Positions 6,356 through 62,510 of a stretch of DNA of 64,000 nucleotides are shown here, piece by piece (positions within the stretch are counted from its first letter, which is position 1; every line of letters begins with the position of its first letter). Where the stretch lies: NCBI RefSeq assembly GCF_035594765.1, contig NC_085844.1:214288107-214352106 (forward strand), written 5' to 3'. Position numbers and translations under genes: made by a program. Below the pieces are notes generated by a model, which was given only the letters and a program-made list of their open reading frames with translations, did no database searches and was not told the DNA's origin. Origin of the DNA: Anolis carolinensis (Eukaryota).

Positions 6356-6841
<486 letters not shown>

Positions 6842-7669
6842 TAAATGACCTCCACATTTTACAGTTTTGCAGCTATTTAATATGTTCATTCATATCCCTA
6901 GGTTCAGGAAAAAATTAAGTCAATAATAGCTTTATGAGCAATTTGGCTGCTCATCGTGATGAGGAATGTTACTGTTGTTCCTTCTACTCATGAAGGACTC
7001 TAAGAAAAAGATTTTTGAGCAAAAATATAATTGGGGAAAAGGTCTTAGATAGATGTAAGTTGCATTGTAAAGGACCTCTGGATACTTAGAAAACCTAAGT
7101 GCTCAACTTGATTTAGGAAGATCCCAAATCATCCATGAAGCTTATGTGGGACTATGCTTATGTAATCTACCTCACAGACCTTTTTAAAAAGTCTAATAAT
7201 TAATAGGTTAGCAGAAGACATTACACTGAACTTAGTTTATTTGTGAAAGACAAATTTACAAAATTAAAACATTCAGTTAGAAGACATTGAACACACTTTC
7301 ACTAGATGTGTGATTTTTCCTTAGTTTGGGAAATGTGGCATAGTATATAGTAGATCTAATTTTTCTACTATTTTTCTTGAGATTACCATGGATATAAGAG
7401 CTTTGTTGTCCAAATGTATGGGTGCTTACAAAATATAACCCCCATTTTATTTAATGATATTTACTCCCAGGTAAATGTGTATAAGATTGCAATCTTAAAT
7501 TGTCTTATTGTAGATAGGAAATTTTTACTCTTTACAGGTTCTTATGTAAAGGATTATAATTAAGAGCCAAACTTCATAAGAATATATGTTTATTATAAAA
7601 AGGGTACAAAAGCAGTATCTGTTATGATATTTTTTTAAAAAAATATCTTCACTATTATCATGACAAGGC

Positions 7670-13570: not shown

Positions 13571-15990
13571 ATAGTATACAAAGAGTTAATACTAAATTCA
13601 GGATGGTGACCACTGTGAGTGTCCCAAATGCAAATGAAATCCAGACCATTTATTCAAATGTATGAAACCATGTTTGGAGCATTTAGGTGTTGAGCAACCT
13701 TTCTTGCCTGTAGTATATCTCCCCTCCACATCTTTTAAAATACATGTATAACATGTTGTATGAATAATTTGGTTGGACTCAGTGAGAGCTTACATGTTAT
13801 ATGGGTTACAGTGTAGTTTGAGTACTATTAATTTCAAGATTGCTAAATGAGCGAGTCAATCAGTTTTTACAAAATGTATTAAAATTTCTTACAGGCAAGA
13901 ATTTTACTTTGGTGTCACAGTACTTCATTCATAAACATTTGCAGGAGGTTGGCTGTATTATTTTCAATTTGTAGTCTTCCCATTTGTTGCAAATGCTTTC
14001 CATCTTTTGTTTTCCTGTTTATGTTTTTAAAAAAGTCAAAATAGCTGAACAGTGTGTTCTTTTTGAGCTTTGGGAGCCCTCTGTCTGAATAGCATCCAAA
14101 GACTGCACTATTCAAAAACAGTTTGTATAACATATTATATGAACTACATTTGAAATGCAAAACTTTATATGAATTGTTCACTGGGGAGATTGTGGACTGG
14201 ATACATCTGAATATGTGTTTTCTTTATAAGTCCTATATTTTATCCTACCATTCCTTCAAGGAGTTCAAATGAATATACATGATATTCTTAAGCACTATCT
14301 TTCATCTTCAGACCAATTTTCAGAGGACAATATTCACAGTGTGTAAAAGTTATTTTTCACTTTAGTTCCCAGAACTATCCAGCCATCATGACCGTTGGGC
14401 AGGTTTCTTGAGGATTCTGTGATTTATACTCCCAAATTTTCAAAATTCTGACATTATTACATTAGTAGTCAATTCAAAGGGTTGTGGTTTCAAAGACAAT
14501 TCATCAGTTAAAGGTTCAGAATACCCAAGGCCACTCCATTGTCCTCACCTTTTAGATTACCGTATGTACTTTCTAAGATTTATTAGGAAGGGAGGGAATG
14601 GTGTATCACGTTACAAGGAATTGTTCCAGCGTAGCTTTGTATTATTCAGCTATTTGAACCTGTGGCAATTACAGTTTTGAGTAATAAAAAACTTTGTATT
14701 GGAAACAATGCTTCTTACATCTCCATAGGCTTTTCCTGACCACACTCAAACTGCCATGCCAGTTTCCATTAAGGATATTGTGATTGTCCTGAACACAGTA
14801 GTATCCTTTTGTGAGCAGGATGCAGCATTGTATGTTTCCTATTTTCCTTTGTTGTGAAATAAAAACGCTTCCGTTCATAACTGACAAAGCTAAAAATACT
14901 TGTTAGGAGCAATCAAATTAACTTTTCTGTACCATAATTATTACTAATGTTTCAGAAAAGAAAAATTGCAGATTAAAGGCCCTCCACTTGTGACCATTTA
15001 TTTGGACTGCTCACAACTTCAAACCTCTACTGCTTTGGCATGAGAGTTTTGTTTCTGAATAATTCTGTTGTGCAAGTACTTCATTAAAGAATTTGCAGAT
15101 GCTGTTTGCCAGAGATTCTTATGCTACTTTGATGCTGACATGTATTCCAGTGATATTTAGATTAATTCTAATTTAACTATCCTGTTTGGTAGTGTGCATA
15201 TTGATTAAATTGAAACCTTTTGAAAATAACTGCTTAGTTGGGCAATGTTGTTTACCGAACAAATGTGGACTGAAATGCCTCAATATAGGTTTCTGACCAT
15301 TCAGTTCCTCCTCCACCTAATTTTCTAATTTCCTGCTTTCAACATACATAGATCTGAATGTTTTGGAATTATAACATTTTAGGAATTTATCCTAAAGGTT
15401 ACAGGGCTTATTTGTTTTATTGGTGGTTTTGGAAAGTTTGAGGTTGATAGATAATTGCTTTTGAAAATGATGTTTTCATGAACTCCAAGGTACAGAACTG
15501 TTGTAGCCCAGCCTGAGTCTGAGATTGGGCCCATTCAGCCAGTGATTGTCCTTGCATCTGCTTTGCCAGAGGACTCTGGATTTGGGCCTGAAAAGCAACC
15601 AGAAGACTCTGGGTTTGGGCCTGAGATACTGCCAGAGTTTGTCCCAGTGGATTCTGGGACCAGAGACTGAATGGTTGCAAGCCCTGAGTCCCTTCGGGTG
15701 AGAAGGATGGGGTATAAATGTTGGAAATAAAATAAATTGTGAACCACATTTTTCCCAGCAGTCAAGGTCAGATCTCCAGGTGCCAGATGGACATTCTAGT
15801 TTAGAGGAGGATAATGAGTTTGACAGGAGGGGAGCAATAACTCACCAGAGGAGGGAGCGAGAATGTTTGCGAAGAAGCAAATGGTTGCTTTTGAAGCGCG
15901 CTAATGAGTAGTTTTCTCATGAGAGGAAGACCTTGGATTTCCCTTAAAATGCCTTGTTTTTTCTGCCATAGCCAGCGGTGGTAACATTGC

Positions 15991-18900
15991 TTCTTCTTCG
16001 AGTTCTCTGTGAATGCACACTGGTGAAGTATACTGCGCCTGCGCAGGCTCTAACGGAAACTTTCCAAGCTTTACATTTTCAATTTTTGGCGGTAACCACG
16101 CCCATTCCTCCCTAGCATATATAAGGCGCTCTGGCTCCGCACTCCCCAGTTCCTTTTTTTTCCGCCGCAGCAGCTCGTCGGAACTTCATCCATTTCAAGA
16201 TTCAGAAGATAATATTCAAGATGCCAGTGCCTCATCTCTAAGGAGAGGCATGTTTTTTGCCTTCTCTGGCACAGGCAAACTTAAACTACGTATCCTGCTT
16301 CAAAGTGAATCTCCCCTCGAGCTTCGGATTTTTCTCACGCAACATCCTCGTTGGGCCCGTACAGCCAGAGGCTTTTCCGGAAGGCCTTGCCATATCCCAG
16401 CCTCCCTCTCCCTCTCCTTGGGAGCGGCCGTTGCTGAAAGCCTCTGCCGCCCCGTTCTTATCGGGCTCCGGTCAAGCTGACAATAAGCCTCCCCCTCCCC
16501 TTTCGTGGGAGCGACGGTTGCTAAACGCCTCTGCCGCCACGTTTTTAAACGGGCCCCGGCCAAGCTGGCAGTAAATCTAAAATGTTGCCTCCTTACCGGC
16601 TGGAAAACTTCGGCAGTAGCTAAGAGGCTGGAAAAAACAAAGACAGCCAGGCTAGGCTTCCCAAGCCATCTCCTCGCATGATTGTCCTTCCTTGGCTGGG
16701 CGGGCTCTTTTCACAGCTGCCCTCGCCCTCCCCGGAAGAGTTGTTGGCACAAATATAAAGGCAATCCTCTCCTCTTCGGAGAAATGCCTTGGATCTGGCT
16801 GCCTTGGCGGTCGCCAAGCTCCATCTACTGGCTCCAGAAAATCACTGCAGCCATGCCAACCCAACCTTTCACCGTCGACAAAACACAAAACTTGGATGGC
16901 TCAAGCCCGGCCTCAATGCTCCTCGGTTTCGACCAGAATGTCTTTTCTCGAACCCGGCGCACAGGTGAGCGGCTCCGAGGCAATGGTCTTCTCTCCATTC
17001 TCCTTATCAATGGAGAGACCGCCCAATATCTCCAGCCTCCCTAAGACTCTGAGATGCCTGAAAAAGGGCCATAGATTATTATCCATAGCCCTTGCCCCTC
17101 TTCTATGCTCCTTTGAGAGGAGTACGATCTGGGCCTCCCTCACTAAAGGTGATTCTGCCTCTAAATACTGCCGATGTGTGGATCTATCTTGAACTATACC
17201 TGACAAACAGCCTAAAAAGGATCAAGCTACACTGTCATTCTAATGCCACAACACCGCCTCCGGCGGGTGTTTGTTATCACAATCCCATCCCTGGCATTCG
17301 TCTTCTCTTGCGACAGACCGAGTTTTTTCCTTACCGCCCTCACGGCCGATCCTGAATCGGCCCCCGAGGAGAGAAGCACCACGGTATCTACCATAGGCTC
17401 TACCATCCAGCACGAGTCACTCTGCTATGATGGATAGATTGTCGTTTTACAACTTGACTACCTCGGGTTCGAATCCCAGTTCGGCCAGGTCTCCATGCAT
17501 CCTGCAGTGTTCGATCAACTCCATAGACTTCTATATACAGAGGTTTCTCGCTACCTGGAGACTCATTCTCCACGCCCCCCGATGCCGAGAAAAGGAAATT
17601 CTTCGACATCATTAGTCTTTCCGACACGGAAGATCCTCGGTACCGCTAGCCTATAGGACTCGGCATAAGCCCAGTCCCGCCGATAACAGTGATATCCTAG
17701 TCTCAAAACACAGAGCTAAAAATACATCCAGCAGTCGGGCTCGTCAGTAGCCCCGATACTTCTACCTAAGCTGAGTCCATCAGTTCAACCTTAAAAATGT
17801 TGCACCATAATCATATAGCCATTTATCATGGAATTATATTTGCAACAAGTCTCACGGACATCTAGTCTGACCCCCTGTCAAAGGGCAAGACAGAGAGATC
17901 CAAGGCCCTAATCTAATAGCACCTCTTCTGAGAGAACTTAGTGCACATCCATCTTTCAATCAGCCCAAAACCCACCAACAACACTCCGCCGACACCGATG
18001 TCGGAATCAATAAGGTGCTCGGGACCCAGCCTCCTGGACCATATGCTGTTCTCGCTACTCTCATCAATGCAATATATTGAGACGCCACTAGCTATCTAAC
18101 ACCCGGAGAGGCAGCCCCAGAGCCGATTGCTTCGGACGTGATTCTTTCGCTCCAGAAGGCCCTCCTCTGGATCCTAACAGCTGCCCCGCATGGGCCTACT
18201 CCCGAAACCTCCTCTCGGGCTCGAAAAAGTATTTTTCAAAACAACAATTGGTCTCCCTCCCTCCATAGGGAAGGGCCTGACAGTTATATCCTTCCCATCC
18301 TCTAGATCAGAGGGGAAATTTCCACTGCTCTTCTCCGCAAGGATGAGATTTTTTCCCTCTACACTATTCCTCTTACTCTGATGGTAGATCCAATGCCTCC
18401 CTACTGCCATCCCTATGGCTCTTGTTCGGGCTGATGCCTTACTGGCACCCCCTATGGCTGCTATATGGGACCTCCTCCGTCGTCTCTCAAACTCTCCTAG
18501 ATCCCCTCACTTCCCTAGGGCAATCGATCTAATCTCTGATGCCTACCCTTCAGAGAACACCCGAAAGAGGAGATGTTCTAGACCAAAGAAATTCCCCTCT
18601 TCGGCTAAAGTTAAAAAAAAAAAAAAAAAAAAAAAAAGACTTTCCCCCTGGCATCGAGTCTGGCCTTTTCCAACTCTCAGGGTTGCTTTCCGTCTCCACT
18701 TATCGGTCAAGGAGCCGGCGCTGTCCGTTGACACCGCCAGGGTCATGTGACCGACAAACCCCTATGGTCCATCATTTCCTCTCCGCCTAAGCGGTGCCTA
18801 TTCACCTACTCACATTCGTATGTTTTTCTTTTTCAACTGCTATGCCGACAGTGGCTCGACCTAACAACGGTCGCTCACTCCGCTCCCCGGATTCAAACCC

Positions 18901-21778
18901 TGGACCTTTTGGTCTATAGCTTCAGTGGCCCAGCACTTTCACACACTGTGCCACCAGGCACTCCAAGATGAAGCTGGTACCTTCTCTAACATACGACTCA
19001 CGGCTCCTCGGCTGCCAGGAGACTGTAATGTAATAAAATGAAATAAAACAGACCCCCCCCCCCAAAAAAAGGGGATAAAGACCACTATCAGCATAGAACA
19101 TGGAATGCTAATCCCAACTCCGTTCTCATGAGTGCCACCCATCACTACACCGATTTAAAGTTTCTTACGTCTCCTCTCGACAAGAACAGCTTAATGTCCG
19201 AAACTATAGACAGACAGTCAACTCTCCGGCATGCCTCCTCACGTTTTTACCCACTATGGGTCATACATGGGAGCCTTAAACCCTCTTGGTTTTAGGTACT
19301 CCTTACCTTTACTCCGCCTCGGGATCCAAAGCCTTCATAAAGTGTCCCATGATGGGGTCCTAACTCTGTCACTGACTGCCGAGACCCAAAATCACTTACC
19401 AGACTATACATAAAACCATTCCGCAACCGCTCCTTCCACTCGCGGATGCGCCTGACTCCGATCCCAGGACTGCCCGCTGAAGGGCATACCGACGCTGATG
19501 ACCGACCCATGCTTGATCAGGGTCCTCTCCTGACTTTCTTACACAGCCTCTCGTTATGTGGCTATATTAGTCTCCAAACCGTAGCATCTACGCATTAGAT
19601 ATGTGGATAACCATATCCCACAGTCCTGATCCACACTTCTCCTGCTCGGTCGACACTAGTTCCTTCCGAACAGCAGTCTATCCTAGTTGGCACTACTCGC
19701 TCTACTCTTCCGTTTTCCTCATATCTCCTCTGGTCACGGCTAACCTCCAGATATGCCCAACTTTAAATTGCCTTGGGCCCACCATAAAATCCTTTCCAAC
19801 CACATGCCTGACACTAAATCAGAGCTCAACTATTGGAATCACCAGACATTTCGCAGATTGCGATTCCCTGCTTGTTCTTCAGACCGGACGAATCCGAAAT
19901 ATGTCCAATCGAACCCTTTGTACCAAAGGGCTTTTTTTTTTTCTTTTTGATTCATCAACAGGCGGCTCCCGCCCTTTTACATGAGTCAAATACTAGCCAA
20001 CCCTTTCCTGTTACGCCCATGGGCTAGTACAAGCAGGAGAGCCACCATGCATGTTTTTTCTTCGGACTCAAGAGATCTCCTTACACCCGACCTCTACATT
20101 CCTCACCCTTGGTCTTCTGTCCGCCTCGGCGTCCACAGACTTTGCTCTCTCGTCGCTGGATACATGCTTCTTATCCATCTTCTGGGCCCAACGAAGCAGA
20201 GACCAGGTTTTTCCTTGCTTGCCAATCACCTGGTAGCGCCACTGCAAAATGACTATGTCAACCTCTACCCGACAACCCACTCCTGATTGTCAGGATGAAT
20301 CCTAGGCTTGATGCCTTCTCACTCGGACGAAACACCGTCCAGACTCCTCGCTACCCCAAACCTCAGTTTGATATACTTTTCGAGTCACATCTCTCGTGAC
20401 CGTCACCTCAGCCTACCACCCCTCAGAGTTAGGGGCCTGACGGGTGGATGATCTTTTTTCCCCCGCTTTTTTTCTGTCTTCCACAAGACACCTTACAGCC
20501 CTCGACATGGCTACTGCTTCCTTTTCTCCCACGGTACCGTCATACTCCGCACATGCCAACGCATAGCATGTTTGTTCTCAGCCCTCGTGTTGCCTATTAC
20601 TACGTTTTTCTACATCTTCTCGATGGTTGGAGGGCCATCCTCTTCCACAACCAGACGACCCAGTCAATGAAATGTCTTCCCAAATTCTTCACCGCCAATG
20701 TCCATACAAACCGGGCGTGCTCGGTTCCGACCCAGCTATACTTCCCCATGGAATTACATTGGCCAGGAGCTTCGACCGCCACCTACCAGGCCGTTTCCCA
20801 CCTCCTTCAGTCGCATCTCGCTTGACCAGAGACCTCCCATCCCTTATGGCCACCCTCCAGAGCACTTCGCTGGCCTCCAGATGCAGGGCGTCCATTTGCA
20901 CCATCTTGATGACCTTCTCTTCGCAAATTATAGACTCAAGATGGTATCCCAACCACATGTGGTTCTCCATCAATCGGTGCTGGGCTCCAATTGTCCCTGA
21001 GATACCCCTTTTTCCTTATATCCGACTAATCCGGCTTTCAGCCTGATGGTGTTGTTTTCTTTTCTCTGACATAAATATGTCTAGTAGTTCATCCTACTAC
21101 CAAAAGTTTATTGAGTTGCTGAATGCCAACGACACCTGTGGACTTCCGATCACTACTGACACTTCCCAGCAGTAAGTTGCTGGACAGCTCTATATGACAG
21201 CCAATGACTTGATATCTTCTACATGGCCGTGAATGACCTAACTTGTTAGTGGCTACCTCCAGCTATGAGTGTCTCTCATATGAAACATTCCTTTGCTGAT
21301 AAACTGGCGCTCTCGTAAGACTTACTTGGCTCCTTTTTCGTTAATATATACAGTTGAAACAAATTGCTGGGCTTGCTTACTGGTGTCGGTTTGATGCTTG
21401 CCCGACCTTCCACAACCTCAGCTTGCTAGTCTCCACCAGTGTGCATTCACAGAGAACTCGAAGAAGAAAGATAGGTTGCTTACCTGTAACCATGTTTCTT
21501 CGAGTGATTCTCTGTGAATCCACACTAACCCGCCCGTCCTCCCCTCAACATCAAACCTCCCCCTTTCTACCGACTACTGCGGCTCAGGAACTGGGGAGTG
21601 CGGAGCCAGAGCGCCTTATATATGCTAGGGAGGAATGGGCGTGGTTACCGCCAAAAATTGAAAATGTAAAGCTTGGAAAGTTTCCGTTAGAGCCTGCGCA
21701 GGCGCAGTATACTTCACCAGTGTGGATTCACAGAGAATCACTCGAAGAAACATGGTTACAGGTAAGCAACCTATCTTT
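15991..21778 (+). mobile_element. DIRS1-like tyrosine-recombinase retrotransposon, non-autonomous/degenerate
   Basis: Left ITR 15991-16153 and right ITR 21587-~21750 with a 3' extension to 21778. Internal complementary region (ICR) 21434-21526 matches both ends. No TSD. Eroded coding traces: RT (KAFIKC at ~19330), RNase H (TLMTDPC at ~19490), YR (LLDGWRAILFHNQT at ~20620; FANYRLK at ~20920). Confidence 0.9.
18613..18964 (-). mobile_element. Highly diverged Sauria SINE embedded in the DIRS element
   Basis: Collinear with the 13250-13570 SINE (GAGCCGGCGCTGTCCGTTGACAC, CTACTCACATT, CCCCGGATTCAAACCCTGGACCTTTTGGTC) but with many substitutions. Confidence 0.75.
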
Positions 21779-22372
21779 ATTCAAGAAAAAAGGATCTTTG
21801 CTCTGTGTTCCTGTGTATCCAGCTTCAAGTTCCAGCCTTTCCTTGGTCTGTGTTTCCAGTTGGATTTCAGTGACTTTGCTGTTTGGTTTTTATTCTGGTC
21901 AAGACCCTTGCCTTGTGAGTCATCATTTGACTTATACCTTGGACTACCTTGGAGTTATTCCTGCCCTCTAGTCCTGTCTTCCTGTGGTTATCCTTGATTC
22001 ATGCCTTGGAAATACTCTAGTGTGGACTATTCTTGATATCTTTTGGGACTCATTTTGATATCCAATTTGGGATTATGTTCTTGAAGTGGTTTTTATAGAC
22101 TCTTGATTCAAGAAATTCAAATACCTTGCTCTTGTGGATTTAAACCTATTTTATTGACTCTGAACTTTATTTGCTTGTTCTTACTTATAACCTTCAATAA
22201 ACAACTTGCTTGGTTATATTCTGGGGCTTTAGTGTGGTTTTGAGGTGCCTATGCAGCCTAGGGGTGCAACAAGAACTCAACTGAACTTTTTATTAGTATA
22301 TATGTGATAAACTATTTACATTTAATGCTGCCACCAGTTCAACTTCAAGCTATATTATCTAACATACTAACA

Positions 22373-25064: not shown

Positions 25065-25972
25065 GAAATACAATAAATTAACTAAATAGGCAAGAGAGGT
25101 GTGATTTCTAAAAGAGGGGGAAAACAAATGGAAGTAAGATTGGCCTAAATAGTAACAGAAAGCAAAAAAAAAAAAAAAAAAGACTTGCTACAGTGTAGCA
25201 GTTGGATAATTATTTGGGGATGGGAATACAGCGGATTGTTAATTGCTCCCAAACTATCTCCCAATTCAGAGAACTTTACGAATGAAAACCAGTCCAATCA
25301 ATAGAGAAGAAGTTATTTTTTAAAAACCCAATACACTGCTCCAGTTCCCAAGATTCCATGGGAGTAAAAGGGAACATATCTTTCAAGTCTAAAGGCCCTT
25401 CTGTTTTGAAGGGTTCCGGCTGCTAGATAGCCCTGGTTTCAAGACAAATCAGTCCCCTCCCCTTCCAAGACTTACTTTCCTCCTTCTTTTCCATTTTAAA
25501 AAAATTGTTGTTTCTTGAGCTCTTGACCGGATCCCCAAGAAGATCTTTCTCTTTCCCACTTGCCTAACAACAGTTATGTAATTTATTTCTTCCTTTCCTA
25601 ATCCTCCACTTTCTGAAGCAGCAGATGTTCCTATTTCACTGAATCTGAGAAAGGGAGAAGGTGCCCATCCTAGTGAATTCTAATGACCTATTTCACTAAA
25701 TGATATTTTTCATCCAGTGTTAATTGGAAAATCTAGTGAATTAGATGATACTACTAAAAGAAACCTACCAAAGGTATAACTTGATGAGTTAATTTGAAAG
25801 TTATTTTCTAATTTAAATGCATTAATCATCTTGAGCACCACTGTCGCTAAAAGGCAAGATATAGATATACACCACTTAGGAATTCAGATAGAAATTTTAT
25901 ATACTGTATGAATCTTGTGTAGTGCTTTTGCTTTGTTATCATAAACATTGTGTTTCAATTTTTTTTTTGCAG

Positions 25973-27287
25973 AGATACTCCTACTCGATGGCAGCCTTTA
26001 CCAGGCACTAAAGCAGCCATGCTGGTCAAAGTCAACAGTCTGAGACAAGTGAATTCTTCTTCAAGCAATTCACTTCAAATGCAGAGCAATGCAGAAACCA
26101 GCAGTCAGAAATCTCTGCTGCCAACACCAGTTGTATATGCCCAGCCTCAGTCTGTAGCACCAAGCGCATTGGCTCCAAAACTTACAGCTCCAGTTGAAAC
26201 AAAGCAGTCCATGCAAATTAAGAAGACAGAGAATGGTGGTTTTTGTCTAGTGTTAACTAATGGACTCCCTTCTCACCCTCCTTCAGGGAGTCAGACACGA
26301 ACACCACAGCCTGCATCTCCAAAGTATGCTTCACCAGCACCAATATATGATGAGCCATCAATTGACTCCCCAATTTATGATGAACCTCCTGTAGATATGG
26401 ACACTGGAAATGCAAATGTGAATGGGATAACACCACAAATGTCACCAAGCAATAGCTTAAAAAAGAAGCCCCAATCAATTAAATTATTACAGCATCCAAG
26501 TATGCAGCAACACCAAGCTGGGAAAAAACATGTGAGAAGCCCTTCTGCAACAGAATACAGCCCCGTCGGAAGAGAATATATTAAACATATGGTCAACATT
26601 GATCAATCATCCAAAAACACTCACTCTCCAGTGATGATCATTGAAAGCGTTGCTAAACCTCAGCTAGGGCAACTTATTTCCAGGGACAGCTTCAAGCAGT
26701 CTTGGAAAGTCTTAGAAGCAAATGTTCTCAAAAATATGGAGGCCCATCACTGTCGGCAGAACAGTCTTCAAGTGCAAGAATATCCTACAGTTATAAGTCA
26801 GCAAGATTCAGGTTACTCAACAGGACCTTCTCCAAGCCTGAGAAAGAGAAAAGGAAGACGGCAAGCTCCAGGCCAGGGAAGGCCCGGCTCTGTAGGCAGT
26901 AGCAGTGAACTCAGTGCTCTGAACGATAAGCTAATTGCAGAGATGCGGGCTGTGGTGAATAGGTCTGCTGCCTGCAGAGAGAGTAAAGGCAGCTTAGATG
27001 CTGAAATGCTGGAAAATGCTAGTTTGCCCGAGGTCAATAAAATTAAGTTTCAATCAGAACGCTTGAAAAAGTGTAACAGCAGGAGCTCAAGAGATGATGT
27101 GACTTCTAGTAACAGGTCCTTATACAGGCCTAGAATGGACAGTAGGGCAAGTGTCTCGAATGACCCAACCGTACAGCAAGATACTGTGAGGCAAAAGAGA
27201 ACCTATGAAAAAATAGATTCTTTAGAAAAGAACATGGCCAGTCAGACAAACCTGTCTTCATCAGACAGAGCACAAACGTCACCCCAG
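25973..27287 (+). CDS. ARHGAP39: ARHGAP39-like large central exon (low-complexity, twin YDEP motifs)
   Basis: Acceptor ttttgcag|A (phase 2, joins 6840) and donor CAG|gtatct. Motifs PIYDEPP, EYSPVGREY, LRKRKGRR and LEKNMASQTNLSS parallel ARHGAP39. Confidence 0.9.
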
Positions 27288-28356
27288 GTATCTATTTATC
27301 ATAATTAGATTGCTTTAGTAGAAAGAAAGATGTTCTAAGATGATAGAGATGGTTGAAGCTTCTGGAAATTGTTGGTTGATTTGTTCCAATGTCACAGAAC
27401 AATGATGGGATGGTTGTTGTGGTGGTAGTGGTAGTGGTGAGAACTGAATGAAAAAGATATTATTAATCAGGAGGTCAGTGTTACTCTGTTAGCATTATTT
27501 AGGAAAGAGTGTTTTTTATATAAATCCATGTAGCTGGGAGTAGATCTGACATCTTTCTAGATTACTGAAGGAGCCACCTCTCTTTGGGCATCAGAAACTC
27601 ATTGAGCTGGAGATAAATTGGTGGGCAGGGATGCTCAGTGAAACATACTGAATTCTTTTTAGATTTGAAACATTCCTACTACTTCTTTGTTCTTATCTTA
27701 TGTTGAGCCACCGTTGTCTGCTGCTTCCAAATTGTGCTTTTGTTCTGGGTTTATATCCTATCTCCAAATTCCTATGTTTTAAGGTTTGTGGTTTTCAGTG
27801 GTGTTTTTACACCAGAAGGATAGATTTCCATTCTTGCCCATCCCCCATCAATAAATGAAATAAACATGGATGTATGCTGTGCTACAGAAAGCAAGATGGA
27901 AAGTATTTTCTTAGTTGGTTGACCTTCCATATTGGCTGTAAGTTAAAGTCATTTGCCATTTTTAGCTTTGCACAGAGGCTATAGCTCCACATAAGCGAAG
28001 CAAAAGAAATAAAATTACCATTAATATGTTTATGTAGAATTCTCAGGTCACTCTTCAGTACCAAAATGAATACCCAAGAAAAACACTTTTAGAGGGAAAG
28101 TTGGAACTTCTGAGAACCTGTTAGAAATAAGAAGGGTAGATATGGGTTGAATTTTGCAGAGGGTGAAATCAGAAGTTTGGGAGTGGGGATTTAATGCATT
28201 GTTTAGATTAACAATGTTTTACATAAGAGATAAGGTTTCTAAGTCTGAAATAAGCAAAGCTTTCTGAAATGGTTTTACCCTTCCTTGGGGATGGATTAAT
28301 TGTTAGCTATTCTGCATCTGAAAAATGAACAGCCAAGATAATTTCTTCCCCTGTAA

Positions 28357-29109
<753 letters not shown>

Positions 29110-29719
29110 TAGTAAAAGTACTTTAGTTCAAGTGGTGAACTAAGTAGCAGAGGTCCAGTTTAACTAAATGAAAAGCCTTATATTTTTAACAAGTAGAAAT
29201 GTTCAGATTCTTCCTAAGAAACTATTATAAGGATTCTAAGGGTCATAGCAATAAGTATAAATAATTTCTATCACTCGTCTTTTTTTCTAGATCACAGCTA
29301 ACACATAACTGAGAAAATTGCTAAATCTGTTTTTATGTTGCTCTGTTTTCTGAATACACATTTGGGAAGTTGATGTCATATTGCTGAAAAGCTGAAAAAT
29401 CTCTTTTCTCCAAGTAAAATTGTGGAGAAAATGTATTGGGTCCTATTTCCCCCTCACCATGCACTGTGTGTTCTGAAAGCATTCTGTATTCTGAGGAAAA
29501 TAAATTGTTTTATAAAGGATAGAAGTAAGTAGAATGCTTTGTCAATCATTTAGAAAAGTAGATTCTTTTTTTTATCTCCATAGAGTGAGATTATAGGAGC
29601 CAAAGGATTAAATTCAGTGCGATCGTAGTGGAAGTGTGCTGTTCCCCTCCTCTGTTCCCAGCAGTCCATTATGTAACCTGAAAATCTAGGGTTTCATAGT
29701 CCACTTGAATAAATTGATG

Positions 29720-32696: not shown

Positions 32697-35600
32697 CATA
32701 GAATCATAGAATAGTAGAGTTGGAAGAGACCTCATGGGCCATCCAGTCCAACCCCCTGCCAAGAAGCAGGAAATTGCATTCAAAGCACCCCCGACAGATG
32801 GCCATCCAGCCTCTGTTTCAAAACCTCCAAAGAAGGAGCCTCCACCACAGTCTGGGGGAGAGAGTTCCACTGCCAAACAGCTCTCACAGTCAGGAAGTTC
32901 TTCCTGATGTTCAGGTGGAATCTCCTTTCCTGTAGTTTGAAGCCATTGTTCCGCGTCCTAGTCTGCAGGGCAGCAGAAAACAAGCTTGCTCCCTCCTCTC
33001 TATGACTTCCCCTCACATATTTGTACATGGCTATCATGTCTCCTCTTAGCCTTCTCTTCTGCAGGCTAAACATGCCCAGTTCTTTAAGCCTCTCCTCATA
33101 GGGCTTGTTCTCCAGACCTTTGATCATTTTAGTTGCCCTCCTCTGGACACATTCCAGCTTGTCAACATCTCCCTTCAACGGCGGTGCCCAGAATTGGACA
33201 CAGTATTCCAGGTGTGGTCTGACCAAGGCAGAATAGAGGGGAAGCATGACTTCCCTGGATCTAGATGCTATACCCCTATTGATGCAGGCTAAAATCCCAT
33301 TGGCTTTGTTAGCAGCCGCATCACATTGCTGGCTCATGTTTAACTTGTTGTCCACAAGGACTCCAAGATCTTTTTCACATGTACTGCTGTCTAGCCAGGC
33401 GTCCCCCATTCTGTATCTTTGCATTCCATTTTTTCTGCCGAAATGAAGTATCTTGCATTTATCCCTGTTGAACTTCATTTTGTTAGTTTCGGCCCATCTC
33501 TCTAGTCTGTCAAGATCGTTTTGAATTCTGCTCCTGTCTTCTGGAGTGTTGGCTATCCCTCCCAGTTTGGTGTCATCTGCAAACTTGATGATCGTGCCTT
33601 CTAACCCTTCGTCTAAGTCATTAATAAAGATGTTAAACAGAACCGGGGGCAAGACGGAACCCTGCGGCACTCCACTAGTGACTTCTTTCCAAGATGAAGA
33701 CAACGCATTGGTGAGCACCCTTTGGGTTCGTTTGCTCAGCCAATTACAGATCCAACTAACCGTAGTTTTGCCTAGCCCACATCTTACTAGTTTGTTTGCC
33801 AGAAAGTCGTGAGGGACTTTGTCGAAGGCCTTACTGAAATCTAGGTACGCTACATCCACGGCATTCCCTGTATCGACCCAACTCGTAACTCTATCGAAAA
33901 AAGAGATCAGATTAGTCTGGCATGACTTGTTTTTGGTAAATCCGTGTTGACTATTAGCAATGACTGCATTTGTTTCTAAGTGTTTTCAGACCACTTCCTT
34001 AATGATCTTTTCCAGAATCTTGCCTGGTATCGACATGAGGCTGACCGGATGGTAATTGTTTGGGTTGTTCTTTTTTCCCTTCTTGAAGATAGGGACCACA
34101 TTTGCCCTCCTCCAATCTTCTGGGACTTCTCCTGTTCTCCAAGAACTCTCTAAGATAATTGTCAGTGGTTCTGAAATAACCTCAGCTAGTTCCTTCAATA
34201 CTCTTGGATGTAGCTGATCTGGCCCTGGAGACTTGAATTCGTTTAGAGCGGCCAGGTGTTCCTGGACAACTTATCTCCCTATTTGGGGTTGGATTTCCCC
34301 GAATCCTTCATCCATTTCATGTTGCTGAGGTTGAAGATGGCTTTCTTTTTGTGAGAAGACCGAGGTAAAGAAGGCATTGAGCAGTTCTGCCTTTTCCCTG
34401 TCCCCTGTCGCCATCACCCCATCTTCTCCTTGCAGAGGCCCTATCGCCTCCTTGTTCTTCCTTTTTCTACCAACGTAAGCAAAAAAGCCTCTTTTTTTGT
34501 TTTTAATGTCCCTGGCAAGCCTGAGCTCATTTTGCGCTTTAGCCTTGCGAACATTTTCCCTACAGGAGTTGGCTATACGTTTGAATTCTTCTTTGGTGAT
34601 TTCTCCCCTTTTCCACTTCTTGTGCATGTCTCTTTTGAGTTTTAGCCCGGTTAGAAGTTCTTTGGACATCCATTCTGGCCTCTTTGCACTTGTCATATTT
34701 TTTTTCTTTGTTGGCACTGTTTGCATTTGCGCCTTGAGTATTTCACTTTTAAAAAACTCCCATCCATCCTTAACTCCCTTGTCTTTTAATATTGGCGTCC
34801 ATGGAATGCCGCTCAGTATTTCCTTCATTTTTTGGAAGTCAGCTCTCTTAAAGTCCAGAATGCGTGTTTGACTTGTATTAGTTTCAGCCTTCCTTTGTAT
34901 GGCAAACTGCAGGAGCACATGGTCACTTGCCGCTAAGGATCCAACGACTTCTACTGTATTGATCAGGTCTTCCACATTTGTTAAGATTAGATCAAGAGTT
35001 GCTGATCTCCTTGTTGCCTCTTCTACCTTCTGGACCATAAAATTGTCTGCAAGGCAAGTGAGGAATTTGTTGGACTTTGTGCTCTTGGCCGAGTTTGTTT
35101 TCCAGCAGACATCAGAATAGTTGAAGTCGCCCATGACTACTATATCTCTTCTTTGTGCCTGTTTGGCCAGCTGTTGACAGAAGGCTTCATCAAGGCCTTC
35201 ATCCTGGTTTGGAGATCTGTAGTAGACGCCCACGACGAGATCTTTTTGAGTCCTGGTTCCCTTGATTCTTATCCAGATGCTTTCAAGCTGGTTTCCCGGA
35301 TTACAGTCTTGCATTTCTTCTGCAATGTAACTGTTTTTGACATATAAAGCTACTCCCCCTCCTCTCCCCTTGGTTCTACTTTTGTGAAAGAGTTTATAGC
35401 CCTCAATGGCTACATTCCAGTGATGGGAGTCATCCCACCAGGTTTCAGTGATGCCTATGACGTCGTACGTGTGGTGCTGTGCTAAAAGTTGGAGTTCGTC
35501 TTGCTTATTTCCCATGCTCTGTACATTAGTATAAAGACATGTAAGCCCCTGTGACCTTTCCCCGAGCTGTTTATTTAGGATTATTGTGCTCTCGGTACTT

Positions 35601-36600
35601 GGTCCTTGCTGTGTTTGTGCAGCCCTCCGTTTAGGCTTTTGGCGGTTCCCTGTGGTTGTGGGTAATACAGTGTTTGCCAGGCTGTTGTTCCCCTCCCCCA
35701 GTGGATCTAGTTTAAAGTGCGCCTGATGAGGTTTGTGAGTCTGTGTGCAAAAAGATGTTTTCCTACTTGTGTGAGATGCACCCCATCACTTGCTAGTAGG
35801 CCATCCTCCTGGAAGAGTAGACCATGGTCAAGGAAGCCAAAATGCTCCTCTTGACACCATTTTCTGAGCCAGTTATTGACCTGTACTATTTTTCCGGCCC
35901 TTGTAGAGCCGTGTCCTACAACGGGGAGGAGGGATGAAAAGATCACATGTACATTATACAGTTTTAGCTTTGTTCCCAGATCTCGAAAATCATTTGTGAT
36001 CTTTTGAAAAGTATGCCTAGCGGTGTCATTGGTTCCTACATGAATCAACATAAGGTGGGGAGGGTGATGGGGCTTTAGGAGCCTGCTGAGCCTCTAAATG
36101 ATATGGTGTATTTTTGCCCCTGGGAGGCAGCATATTTCTCGAGCCATCCCATCTGGTCTGGAAATGATGGCTTCCGTTCCTCTAAGGAGGGAGTCACCTA
36201 CTACCAAGACCTGTTTCCTTTGAGGATTGATAAGGTCCCTTTTGTGCAAGACAGTGTGTATGTCCCCTGAAGAGTGTTCCTGTTGAAGTAAATCAGGTAG
36301 GTAGTAAAGTGTTGTCCTCCTCTTCAATATCCCCAGTGCATTCATCAATGACAATCCATTGAGATGCGTCTGAGAGCCCATCACTCTCCCAAGGATGTTC
36401 CTGTTGCTCCTGGTCTACGATTGGGGATGGAGCATTTGCATGATTACATAAGTGTGAATGTGGTGATGCACTGTCCCCGTCAGGGCTATCCCCTGCGCAT
36501 TGATCAAGGGTGGCCCACTGAGTGGTATCTAAGTAACTGTGGTCCTCCACAAGATGTGTTTCCTGATTGTATGTTAGTGGTGTAAGAATTCTGAATCTGT
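32697..36600 (-). mobile_element. Near full-length CR1 LINE: ORF1 esterase part, and ORF2 EN+RT with two premature stops
   Basis: (ATTCTATG)n tail at 32697. RT 32780-33859 (YLDFSKAFD, GVPQGSVL, KFADD). Endonuclease 34271-35515 (GITETWW, MGDFN, SDH). SGNH esterase 35707-36384 (GDSLLR, GTND, DGVH). In-frame stops at ~34271 and ~33986. 5'-truncated. Confidence 0.95.
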
Positions 36601-40871: not shown

Positions 40872-42506
<1,635 letters not shown>

Positions 42507-60899: not shown

Positions 60900-62425
60900 C
60901 TCGTGGTATTTCGCTTCTAACCTCCACTGGGAAAATCCTTGCAAGAATCCTTGCAAACCACTTTCTTCCTGTCTCAGAAGACACCCTCCCAGAATGGCTT
61001 CCACCCCTGCAGAGGAACAGTGGACATGACCTTCACTGCACGACAGCTCCAAGAAAAATGCAGGGAACAAAATCAACCTCTGTACATAGCATTCATTGAC
61101 CTTGCAAAGGCATTTGACACAGTGAATCGCAGCGCTCTCTGGACCATACTCCAAAAAATCGGGTGCCCTGACAAATTTGTGAACATCCTGCGGCTCCTCC
61201 ATGATGACATGATGGCAACAGTCTTGGACAGCAACGGCTCCCAAAGTGACCCATTTAAGGTGGAATCAGGTGTCAAGCAGGGATGTGTCATTGCCCCTAC
61301 CTTGTTTTCTATCTTCATCGCTATGATACTTCACTTTGTTGAAGGGAAGCTTCCCACCGGAGTGGAAATTATCTATCGGACAGATGGCAAGCTATTTAAC
61401 CTCAGCAGACTGAAAGCCAAAACCAAGGTCACCACAACATCTATTATAGAACTCCAATATGCCGATGACAATGTAGTCTGTGCGCATTCAGAAGAACACC
61501 TACAAGCCACTCTAAGCACCTCTGCAGAAGCATACGAGAAGCTCAGCCTCTCATTGAACATCGAGAAAACCAAAGTGCTCTTCCAATAGGCACCAGCTAA
61601 TTCCTCTTCAATGCCAGGAATACAGCTTAATGGTGTAACATTAGAAAAGGTTGACCATTTCCGCTACCTTGGCACCAACCTCTTCACAAGAGTCAACATT
61701 GACACTGAAATACAACACCGCTTGAGCTCTGCGAGTGCAGAATTTTTCCGAATGAAGCAGAGAGTGTTTGATGATTGGGACATCCGTAGAGATACCAAGG
61801 TGCTCGTTTATAAAGCCATTGTCCTCCCAACCCTGCTCTATGCCTGTGAAACGTGGATGGTCTACAGACATCACACGCAACTCCTGGAGCATTTCCATCA
61901 GCGCTGCTTGGGAAGACAGGCGGACAAATGCCAGCAGGCTGGAAGAAGCAAAGACCACCAGCATTGAAGTGATGCTCCTACGCCATCAACTTTGCTGGAC
62001 TGGCCATGTTGTCCAAATGCCCGATCACCATCTCCCAAAGCAGTTACTCTACTCCCAACTCAAGAACAGAAAACGGAATGTTGGTGGGCAGGAAAAGAGA
62101 TTTAAAGATGGGCTTAAAGCCAACCTTAAAAACTGTGGCATAGATACTGAGAACTGGGAAACCCTGACCCTTGAGCGCTCTAATTGGAGGTCAGCTGTGA
62201 CCAGCAGTGCTGCAAAGTTCGAAGAGGCACGAATGGAGGGCTTAAGGGAGAAACTTGCCAAGAGGAAGGAGCGTCATGCCAACCCTGACTGGGACCGCCT
62301 TCCACCTGGAAACCGATGTCCTCACTGTGGGAGAACATGCAGATCAAGAATAGGTCTTTTCAGCCACCTACGGACACCCCCCCCCCCCAAGACACCAGAA
62401 ACGAAGGACCATCATCCTCGGCCTA
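60900..62425 (+). mobile_element. RTE-BovB LINE, 5'-truncated, disrupted RT
   Basis: ORF 60939..61589 has AFIDLAKAFDTV, GVKQGCVIAPTLF and YADD; C-terminal CPHCGRTC..GLFSHLRT zinc knuckle; stops and frameshifts. Confidence 0.92.
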
Positions 62426-62510
62426 AGTAAAGTATAGGGCTGTGTGGAAGGGCCTTTAGTCACACAATAAGAAGCCACAATCCCTGAATGTTTTGCAGTA
62501 TTTAGTACAC

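Follow-up and report, generated by a model that had tools for sequence, protein, structure and literature searches.

Trans-mobilization of DIRS retrotransposons has been demonstrated only for Dictyostelium DIRS-1, for which the excerpted text of Malicki et al. 2020 (PMC7192593) reports that the internal complementary region (ICR) is essential, that the reverse transcriptase (RT) acts in trans, and that the complementary DNA (cDNA) is single-stranded. In Anolis, the passages of Piednoel 2011 (PMC3266345) on AcDIRS1 and AcDIRS2 give conserved inverted terminal repeats (ITRs) of 140 and 136 nt, ICRs of 40–58 and 39–60 nt, an AAA/AAG-type junction, and a 'divergent ITR', the outer ITR part that is templated by the ICR. 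Here, we analyzed a 64,000-nt stretch of Anolis carolinensis DNA (the window; contig NC_085844.1, positions 214,288,107–214,352,106, forward strand), which contains a DIRS1-type retrotransposon with a junction of the same type, an outer ITR that is likewise divergent and ICR-templated, and end structures of closely similar size. However, while the Anolis DIRS elements annotated in those passages keep pol and tyrosine recombinase (YR) motifs, the present element has no usable open reading frame and carries a short interspersed element (SINE). With its intact ends and dead genes, it was likely inserted recently, and it likely belongs to a small family of near-identical copies that is copied and inserted in trans by the enzymes of intact DIRS elements sharing its ends.

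The element is not a new kind of system. TOC1 of Chlamydomonas has split direct repeats. The available text of PMC9940879 terms it a non-autonomous DIRS element, and the supplement of PMC9341512 lists the zebrafish families DIRS-N1 to N4_DR (5796–6632 nt) and DIRS-N1_NV (5654 nt), whose N marks non-autonomy in Repbase-style names according to the part of PMC8969392 that concerns naming. By description or by this naming rule, TOC1 and the DIRS-N families are thus non-autonomous like the present element; the zebrafish families are classed as Ngaro, whereas ours is of the ITR/ICR type with a collinear eroded YR gene, a comparison made by name and length only. Since five of the seven DIRS-N entries in that length table are full size (5.65–6.63 kb), the near-native length of our element is not exceptional, and an earlier note on this DNA overstated the case in calling it unlike typical short deletion derivatives. 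Among the Anolis DIRS entries seen in the same supplement, 27 of 30 measure 5.4–6.6 kb, compared with 5788 nt here, of which about 350 nt are SINE. Repbase DIRS-7_ACar, at 5789 nt in that supplement, matches the 5788–5789 nt of our element in length, a coincidence with an estimated chance of about one in five; on this comparison, made by length only, the present family may be DIRS-7_ACar and thus already catalogued. The sections of PMC7561263 around its Table 3 report a polymorphic 5787-nt 'Dirs' insertion near TESK2, present in 22 of 22 northern and 4 of 30 Florida anoles; we rejected it as the present locus, since the host gene here encodes WW, MyTH4 and RhoGAP domains. Outside DIRS, mouse VL30 and ETn and the plant large retrotransposon derivatives (LARDs) are multi-kilobase elements with no coding capacity that are moved in trans by MLV, MusD or long terminal repeat (LTR) partners (excerpts of PMC6466679 and PMC4350172); in contrast to our element, with its inverted, ICR-repaired ends and recombinase insertion, these are LTR/integrase elements with target duplications. 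Within the open literature (most subscription journals and Repbase Reports being outside its scope), our search found no description of an eroded, non-autonomous DIRS of the ITR/ICR type in a squamate.

Between 0.81 and 0.91 of the element's sequence words were present in 20 of the 24 sequencing runs listed (nine studies, one organism), and four of these 20 runs, from four studies (X1, X8, X10 and X11), were compared in detail. In all four, an empty-site joint (15990→21777, with a 2-nt overlap) fixed the limits of the element, in agreement with the boundaries proposed in the earlier note. The element entered a short T-rich core and left no target duplication, with a TT overlap between a CTT left end and a TTT right end. 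As proof of insertion polymorphism the empty-site joint was rejected, since the contig in X1, with 8 of 90 letters different, represents a paralogous LTR. Both ends have the arrangement expected of DIRS1-like elements, with inverted ITRs, a right extension, and an ICR complementary to both outer ends that overlaps at the circle junction. Aligned over 161 columns (15994–16154 against 21586–21749), the ITRs differ in their outer part by one substitution and one 3-nt indel and are identical along 139 nt, in agreement with the near-identity of the cores that the note had described. The joined ends, read as their reverse complement, match the ICR at every one of 93 nt, and the ICR halves correspond to the two ends across 35 and 60 nt. 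Therefore, both ITR differences are templated by the ICR, as the note had held for the one that it saw, and correspond to the 'divergent ITR' of the excerpted Piednoel 2011 text. CpG dinucleotides are retained as had been claimed, with an observed/expected ratio of 0.69 within the element compared with 0.37 and 0.27 in the flanks.

The intact gag, pol and YR frames of an autonomous DIRS are absent from the interior, which is the same in four studies. It holds 53–59 stops per frame, and its longest plus-strand stop-free frame (178 aa) is at chance level, the median of 100 shuffles being 173 aa, which bears out the earlier report of no long open reading frame. Pfam searches of all six frames, read through stops, gave no match (best E 0.14), and no DIRS protein was retrieved by a word-indexed protein search, a protein atlas or phmmer (one frame against 1.8 billion proteins), the single phmmer match falling in the SINE stretch. 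Similarly, with invertebrate profiles neither hmmsearch --max nor plain frameshift alignment revealed anything significant in the element. Our reference set of natural DIRS comprised 119 loci, found through an RT motif, 120 pol proteins and 120 recombinase-bearing proteins, many of them fish-named; the resulting profiles are of fish and invertebrates, not lizards. Frameshift-aware alignment with a pseudogene emission model, judged against trinucleotide-preserving shuffles, revealed a dead YR gene with a score of 47.4 (null 24.6 ± 3.1), which none of 60 shuffles reached. The pseudogene sits at the canonical 3′ place, ahead of the ICR, and in simulated decay a score near 47 corresponded to about 0.6 substitutions per site with five non-fish templates, and to more with a fish-like template. 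Its RxTR string replaces HSTR, as does RSTR in the AcDIRS1 and AcDIRS2 sequences shown in PMC3266345, where it lies 515 and 599 nt before the ICR compared with 612 nt here.

The earlier note had reported RT, RNase H, methyltransferase and YR traces in canonical order, and of these the YR trace stood. An RT trace at 17061–17540 was marginal (equalled by 6 of 60 shuffles), while the RNase H and methyltransferase scores were reached by 56 and 38 of 60 shuffles, respectively, and are at chance level; consequently, the canonical gene order is shown for YR only. In one setting, none of 30 shuffles reached the alignment score of the whole pol; in three further settings, 11 of 30, 14 of 40 and 12 of 40 did. 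Ten pol motifs placed at positions predicted from Anolis DIRS geometry showed no enrichment (Fisher p 0.67), and one of nine shifted controls gave p 0.033, which sets the noise level of this test. Two maps of the RT, RNase H and methyltransferase domains drawn by eye were discarded, being incompatible with each other and having passed no test. A second RT near 20900, suggested by an HLDD-like string seen by eye, was also rejected, as the stretch aligns with the YR C-terminus and no internal DNA duplication was found.

The same eroded interior was found, at more than 99% identity, in the four runs from four studies. Their shared stops and frameshifts exclude assembly error. Run X1 differs from the window copy by seven substitutions across 16155–21502, plus gaps attributed mostly to homopolymers; in the rows listed, the window copy alone carries six substitutions and a 1-nt indel. 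In the DNA-like run X10, the listed main interior contigs have depths of 70–98, whereas the unique flank has 14.5 and the LTR alleles belonging to the window itself have 11–13.5 (at 15630, 21840 and 21965); in X8, also DNA-like, the corresponding depths are 16–18 and about 2.4–4.6. This excess of interior over flank depth suggests roughly 4–9 near-identical copies of the interior beside a single-copy flank (X11, with its 5′-skewed depth and uncertain type, was left out of the estimate). By this measure, there are several near-identical copies with the same disablements, as the earlier proposal of a young insertion from a multi-copy family had anticipated. Older tiers of the lineage exist as well: among the listed contigs, five share about 90% identity with the interior and another reaches 96.5%. 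The 96.5% variant (X8, 18555–18651) carries four G-to-A changes in 100 nt, possibly reflecting editing or an intermediate subfamily. An ITR variant reaches a depth of 1950 in X10; by depth, therefore, more than 100 elements carry the same ends. Near 21415, interiors of other kinds are attached to the common 3′ end.

An internal record of the decay is provided by the embedded SINE. We take it to be a Sauria SINE lying on the minus strand. It is homologous to four free SINE copies in the window and disagrees with the majority base of these copies at 87 of 315 sites (27.6%, Kimura two-parameter distance [K2P] 0.36), compared with 131 differences in 1100 sites for the free copies overall (10–13.5% each, K2P 0.11–0.15; p 1e-10 against the embedded copy). 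On the DIRS sense strand, 35 of 83 G sites had changed, compared with 12 of 90 C sites (p 3e-5), whereas the same comparison in the free copies showed no bias (48 of 280 and 43 of 314, p 0.26). Restricting the analysis to unanimous columns preserved the difference (G changed at 21 of 54, C at 9 of 62, p 0.003), with ten G>C changes and no C>G change. The embedded copy retains 7 of 20 CpG sites although, outside CpG, it has diverged about three times as far as the free copies. Its GC skew (−0.27) has come to resemble that of the interior around it (−0.24 to −0.30), while three free SINEs range from −0.01 to −0.06 and nine intact DIRS from +0.06 to −0.13. Its tail is now a pure A-run, as if by polymerase slippage. 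Collectively, the excess divergence, the loss of G and the retained CpG sites point to decay during copying cycles, not during rest in methylated chromosomal DNA, in line with the earlier idea of an interior that decayed across many copying rounds. It is very improbable that the element is instead an ancient fossil that decayed at its chromosomal site, its ends homogenized by gene conversion and its raised depth produced by segmental duplication or by artefacts of assembly. Such a fossil would fit the indirect nature of depth as a measure and the lack of a second flank among the contigs displayed, but it is contradicted by flank alleles that are single-copy beside a several-fold deeper interior, by the CpG ratio and the strand bias of the SINE divergence, and by the disablements common to four studies.

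The interior identity above 99%, the raised depth, the relatives at about 90% and the ends common to 100 or more elements together make a trans-mobilized lineage likely. By analogy with the DIRS-1 model, the left ITR would drive a long RNA, which the RT of an intact partner, predicted from the shared ends, would copy into single-stranded cDNA. In every round, both ends would be rebuilt from the right ITR and the ICR, and the partner's YR would insert the circle at a TT core. Each cycle would thus reset and select the ends while leaving the interior free to drift, presumably over very many rounds given the divergence estimated by simulation for the recombinase gene and that of the carried-along SINE. 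Loss of G from the sense strand would be expected of reverse transcription or of damage to minus-strand cDNA, and not of rest in methylated chromosomal DNA.

Several of our observations weigh against a trans-copied lineage. No intact partner element was retrieved, and none of the run contigs listed revealed a further insertion site with flanks of its own. Contig depth is not copy number, so the copy estimate, drawn from within the four of 20 runs compared, is indirect. Some recent copy-to-copy differences reflect chromosomal CpG decay (9 of 28 listed sites, and three of the six window-private substitutions). The nine intact DIRS that served as a reference for GC skew include no anole element, and one 1-kb flank segment reaches −0.22. 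In the embedded SINE, the gain of C over G taken alone is not significant (26 against 14, p 0.08), and with four free copies as the baseline, the embedded copy could belong to an older SINE subfamily. The pol traces, as reported above, are not significant, and the RT score lies below most simulated decays: at the decay that fits YR, RT is usually visible, with 18 of 20 replicates above 29 and only two as low as observed. An interior of partly foreign origin is therefore possible. In that case, template switching or recombination would have linked new DIRS ends and the 3′ part of a decayed recombinase to a partly non-DIRS interior, as in mouse ETn, with subsequent amplification in trans. We consider such a chimera unlikely. 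It would account for YR being the only detectable gene and for the other interiors attached to the shared 3′ end; against it, base skew, GC and CpG content are even along 16965–20990, the length falls inside the range of most Anolis DIRS entries seen, and the RNase H and methyltransferase scores lie within the simulated range, the profiles, moreover, not being those of lizards.

The element also contains a single strong splice-donor-like site on its interior sense strand. In run X1, which is RNA-like by the tool's guess, the element is covered but the unique flank is not; the 5′ 0.8 kb is ten times deeper, and contig depth drops from 260 to 26 at the predicted junction, where the DNA-like X8 and X10 are flat. 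Most element transcripts may therefore be spliced. A second path past the donor starts with G, while the next host exon starts with A; an acceptor-like site at 21525–21588 would suit the G, yet the X1 contig passes through it unbroken. Among the listed run records, no RNA run is named as holding the element. It is conceivable, though highly unlikely, that the host keeps the lineage as a source of promoters or non-coding RNA, the abundant spliced 5′ transcript being the selected product. The X1 coverage and its 5′ excess up to the donor would agree with this explanation, but the parts that serve transposition, the ICR and both ITRs, are the ones that are perfect, the copies are young with a drifting interior, and X1 counts as RNA only by that guess. 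For the trans-copied lineage, the earlier note had further suggested a constraint on length or RNA structure, which our analysis did not establish: mean folding z-scores were −0.76 on the sense and −0.78 on the antisense strand (39 folding windows), −0.27 in the flanks (56 folding windows), and 0.01 to −1.66 in four intact DIRS, a mild excess that is equal on both strands and not specific. It is conceivable, though doubtful, that DIRS replication limits genome length to about 5.5–6.5 kb so that parasites erode in place over thousands of cycles, with the SINE as a neutral reporter of minus-strand cytosine loss on single-stranded cDNA and the retained splice donor diverting most transcripts from transposition.

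Table 1. Positions of the element, its parts and its host sequences in the window
Feature	Position	Strand	Remarks
Whole non-autonomous DIRS1-type element	15991–21778	+	5788 nt; 2-nt TT overlap with target
Left ITR	15991–16154	+	Outer divergent part 15991–16015; perfectly conserved part 16016–16154
TATA-like box inside left ITR	~16119	+	Putative promoter
Tandem duplication	16399–16574	+	Two ~87-nt units, ~81% alike; internal sign of old divergence
Splice-donor-like site	16962–16969	+	Sole strong one on interior sense strand; predicted junction 16964/16965
Eroded gag/pol region	16965–19950	+	RT, RNase H and methyltransferase without statistically supported placement
Embedded SINE	18613–18960	-	~350 nt; tail became 25-nt A-run; G-depleted on DIRS sense strand
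Dead tyrosine recombinase gene	19950–20985	+	Significant part 20221–20985; 4 frameshifts, 4 stops; RxTR motif at 20819
ICR	21434–21526	+	Reverse complement of circle junction; halves 35 nt and 60 nt
Right ITR and right extension	21586–21778	+	Right ITR itself 21586–21749
Host solo LTR split by the element	15499–22271	.	~987 nt minus element; TG..CA ends; identical 5-nt target duplication each side
Host-gene exons (WW, MyTH4, RhoGAP domains)	6356–6844, 25923–27308, 28357–29112, 41158–41826

The element lies in an intron of the WW-MyTH4-RhoGAP gene, in the same orientation as the gene, which is presumably ARHGAP39-like. The solo LTR that it splits belongs to a high-copy family, judged by read depth. 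This LTR host, the embedded SINE with its A-run and the 87-nt tandem duplication were absent from the earlier account, and within the element there are also two AATAAA signals as well as long runs of a single base (A25, C11 and T11), these features lying at 19032–19072, 19932 and 18613. Elsewhere in the window, long interspersed element (LINE)-like RT and endonuclease frames occur at 32780–36093, 1118–1858 and 60921–62430, which we take, by eye, to be CR1- and RTE-like; Rfam gave no match within the window. Scans with the ICR pattern gave no match in metagenomes and 15 in viral contigs, the latter taken as chance, and RT motifs matched viral contigs 0 and 5 times, the four of these matches that were translated not being RT. 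DIRS-like pol proteins are frequent in public 'metagenome' contigs, one of them labelled as a protein of a bacterial metagenome-assembled genome, and likely represent host DNA.

The DIRS replication cycle has been studied experimentally mainly in Dictyostelium. If the trans-copied lineage proposed here is real, it would amount to a natural deletion-and-mutation scan of a DIRS, and the ITRs and the ICR alone could sustain transposition in a vertebrate. Its interior, including a SINE of known ancestry, would offer a neutral substrate for reading the error spectrum of the DIRS cycle, and, alongside the full-size DIRS-N entries, the lineage would allow a length limit on DIRS replication to be tested comparatively. 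Gene-dead DIRS families of this kind escape protein-based searches for transposable elements altogether. Should the TESK2-linked 'Dirs' insertion belong to the present family, a gene-dead lineage would include a candidate for selection in anoles.

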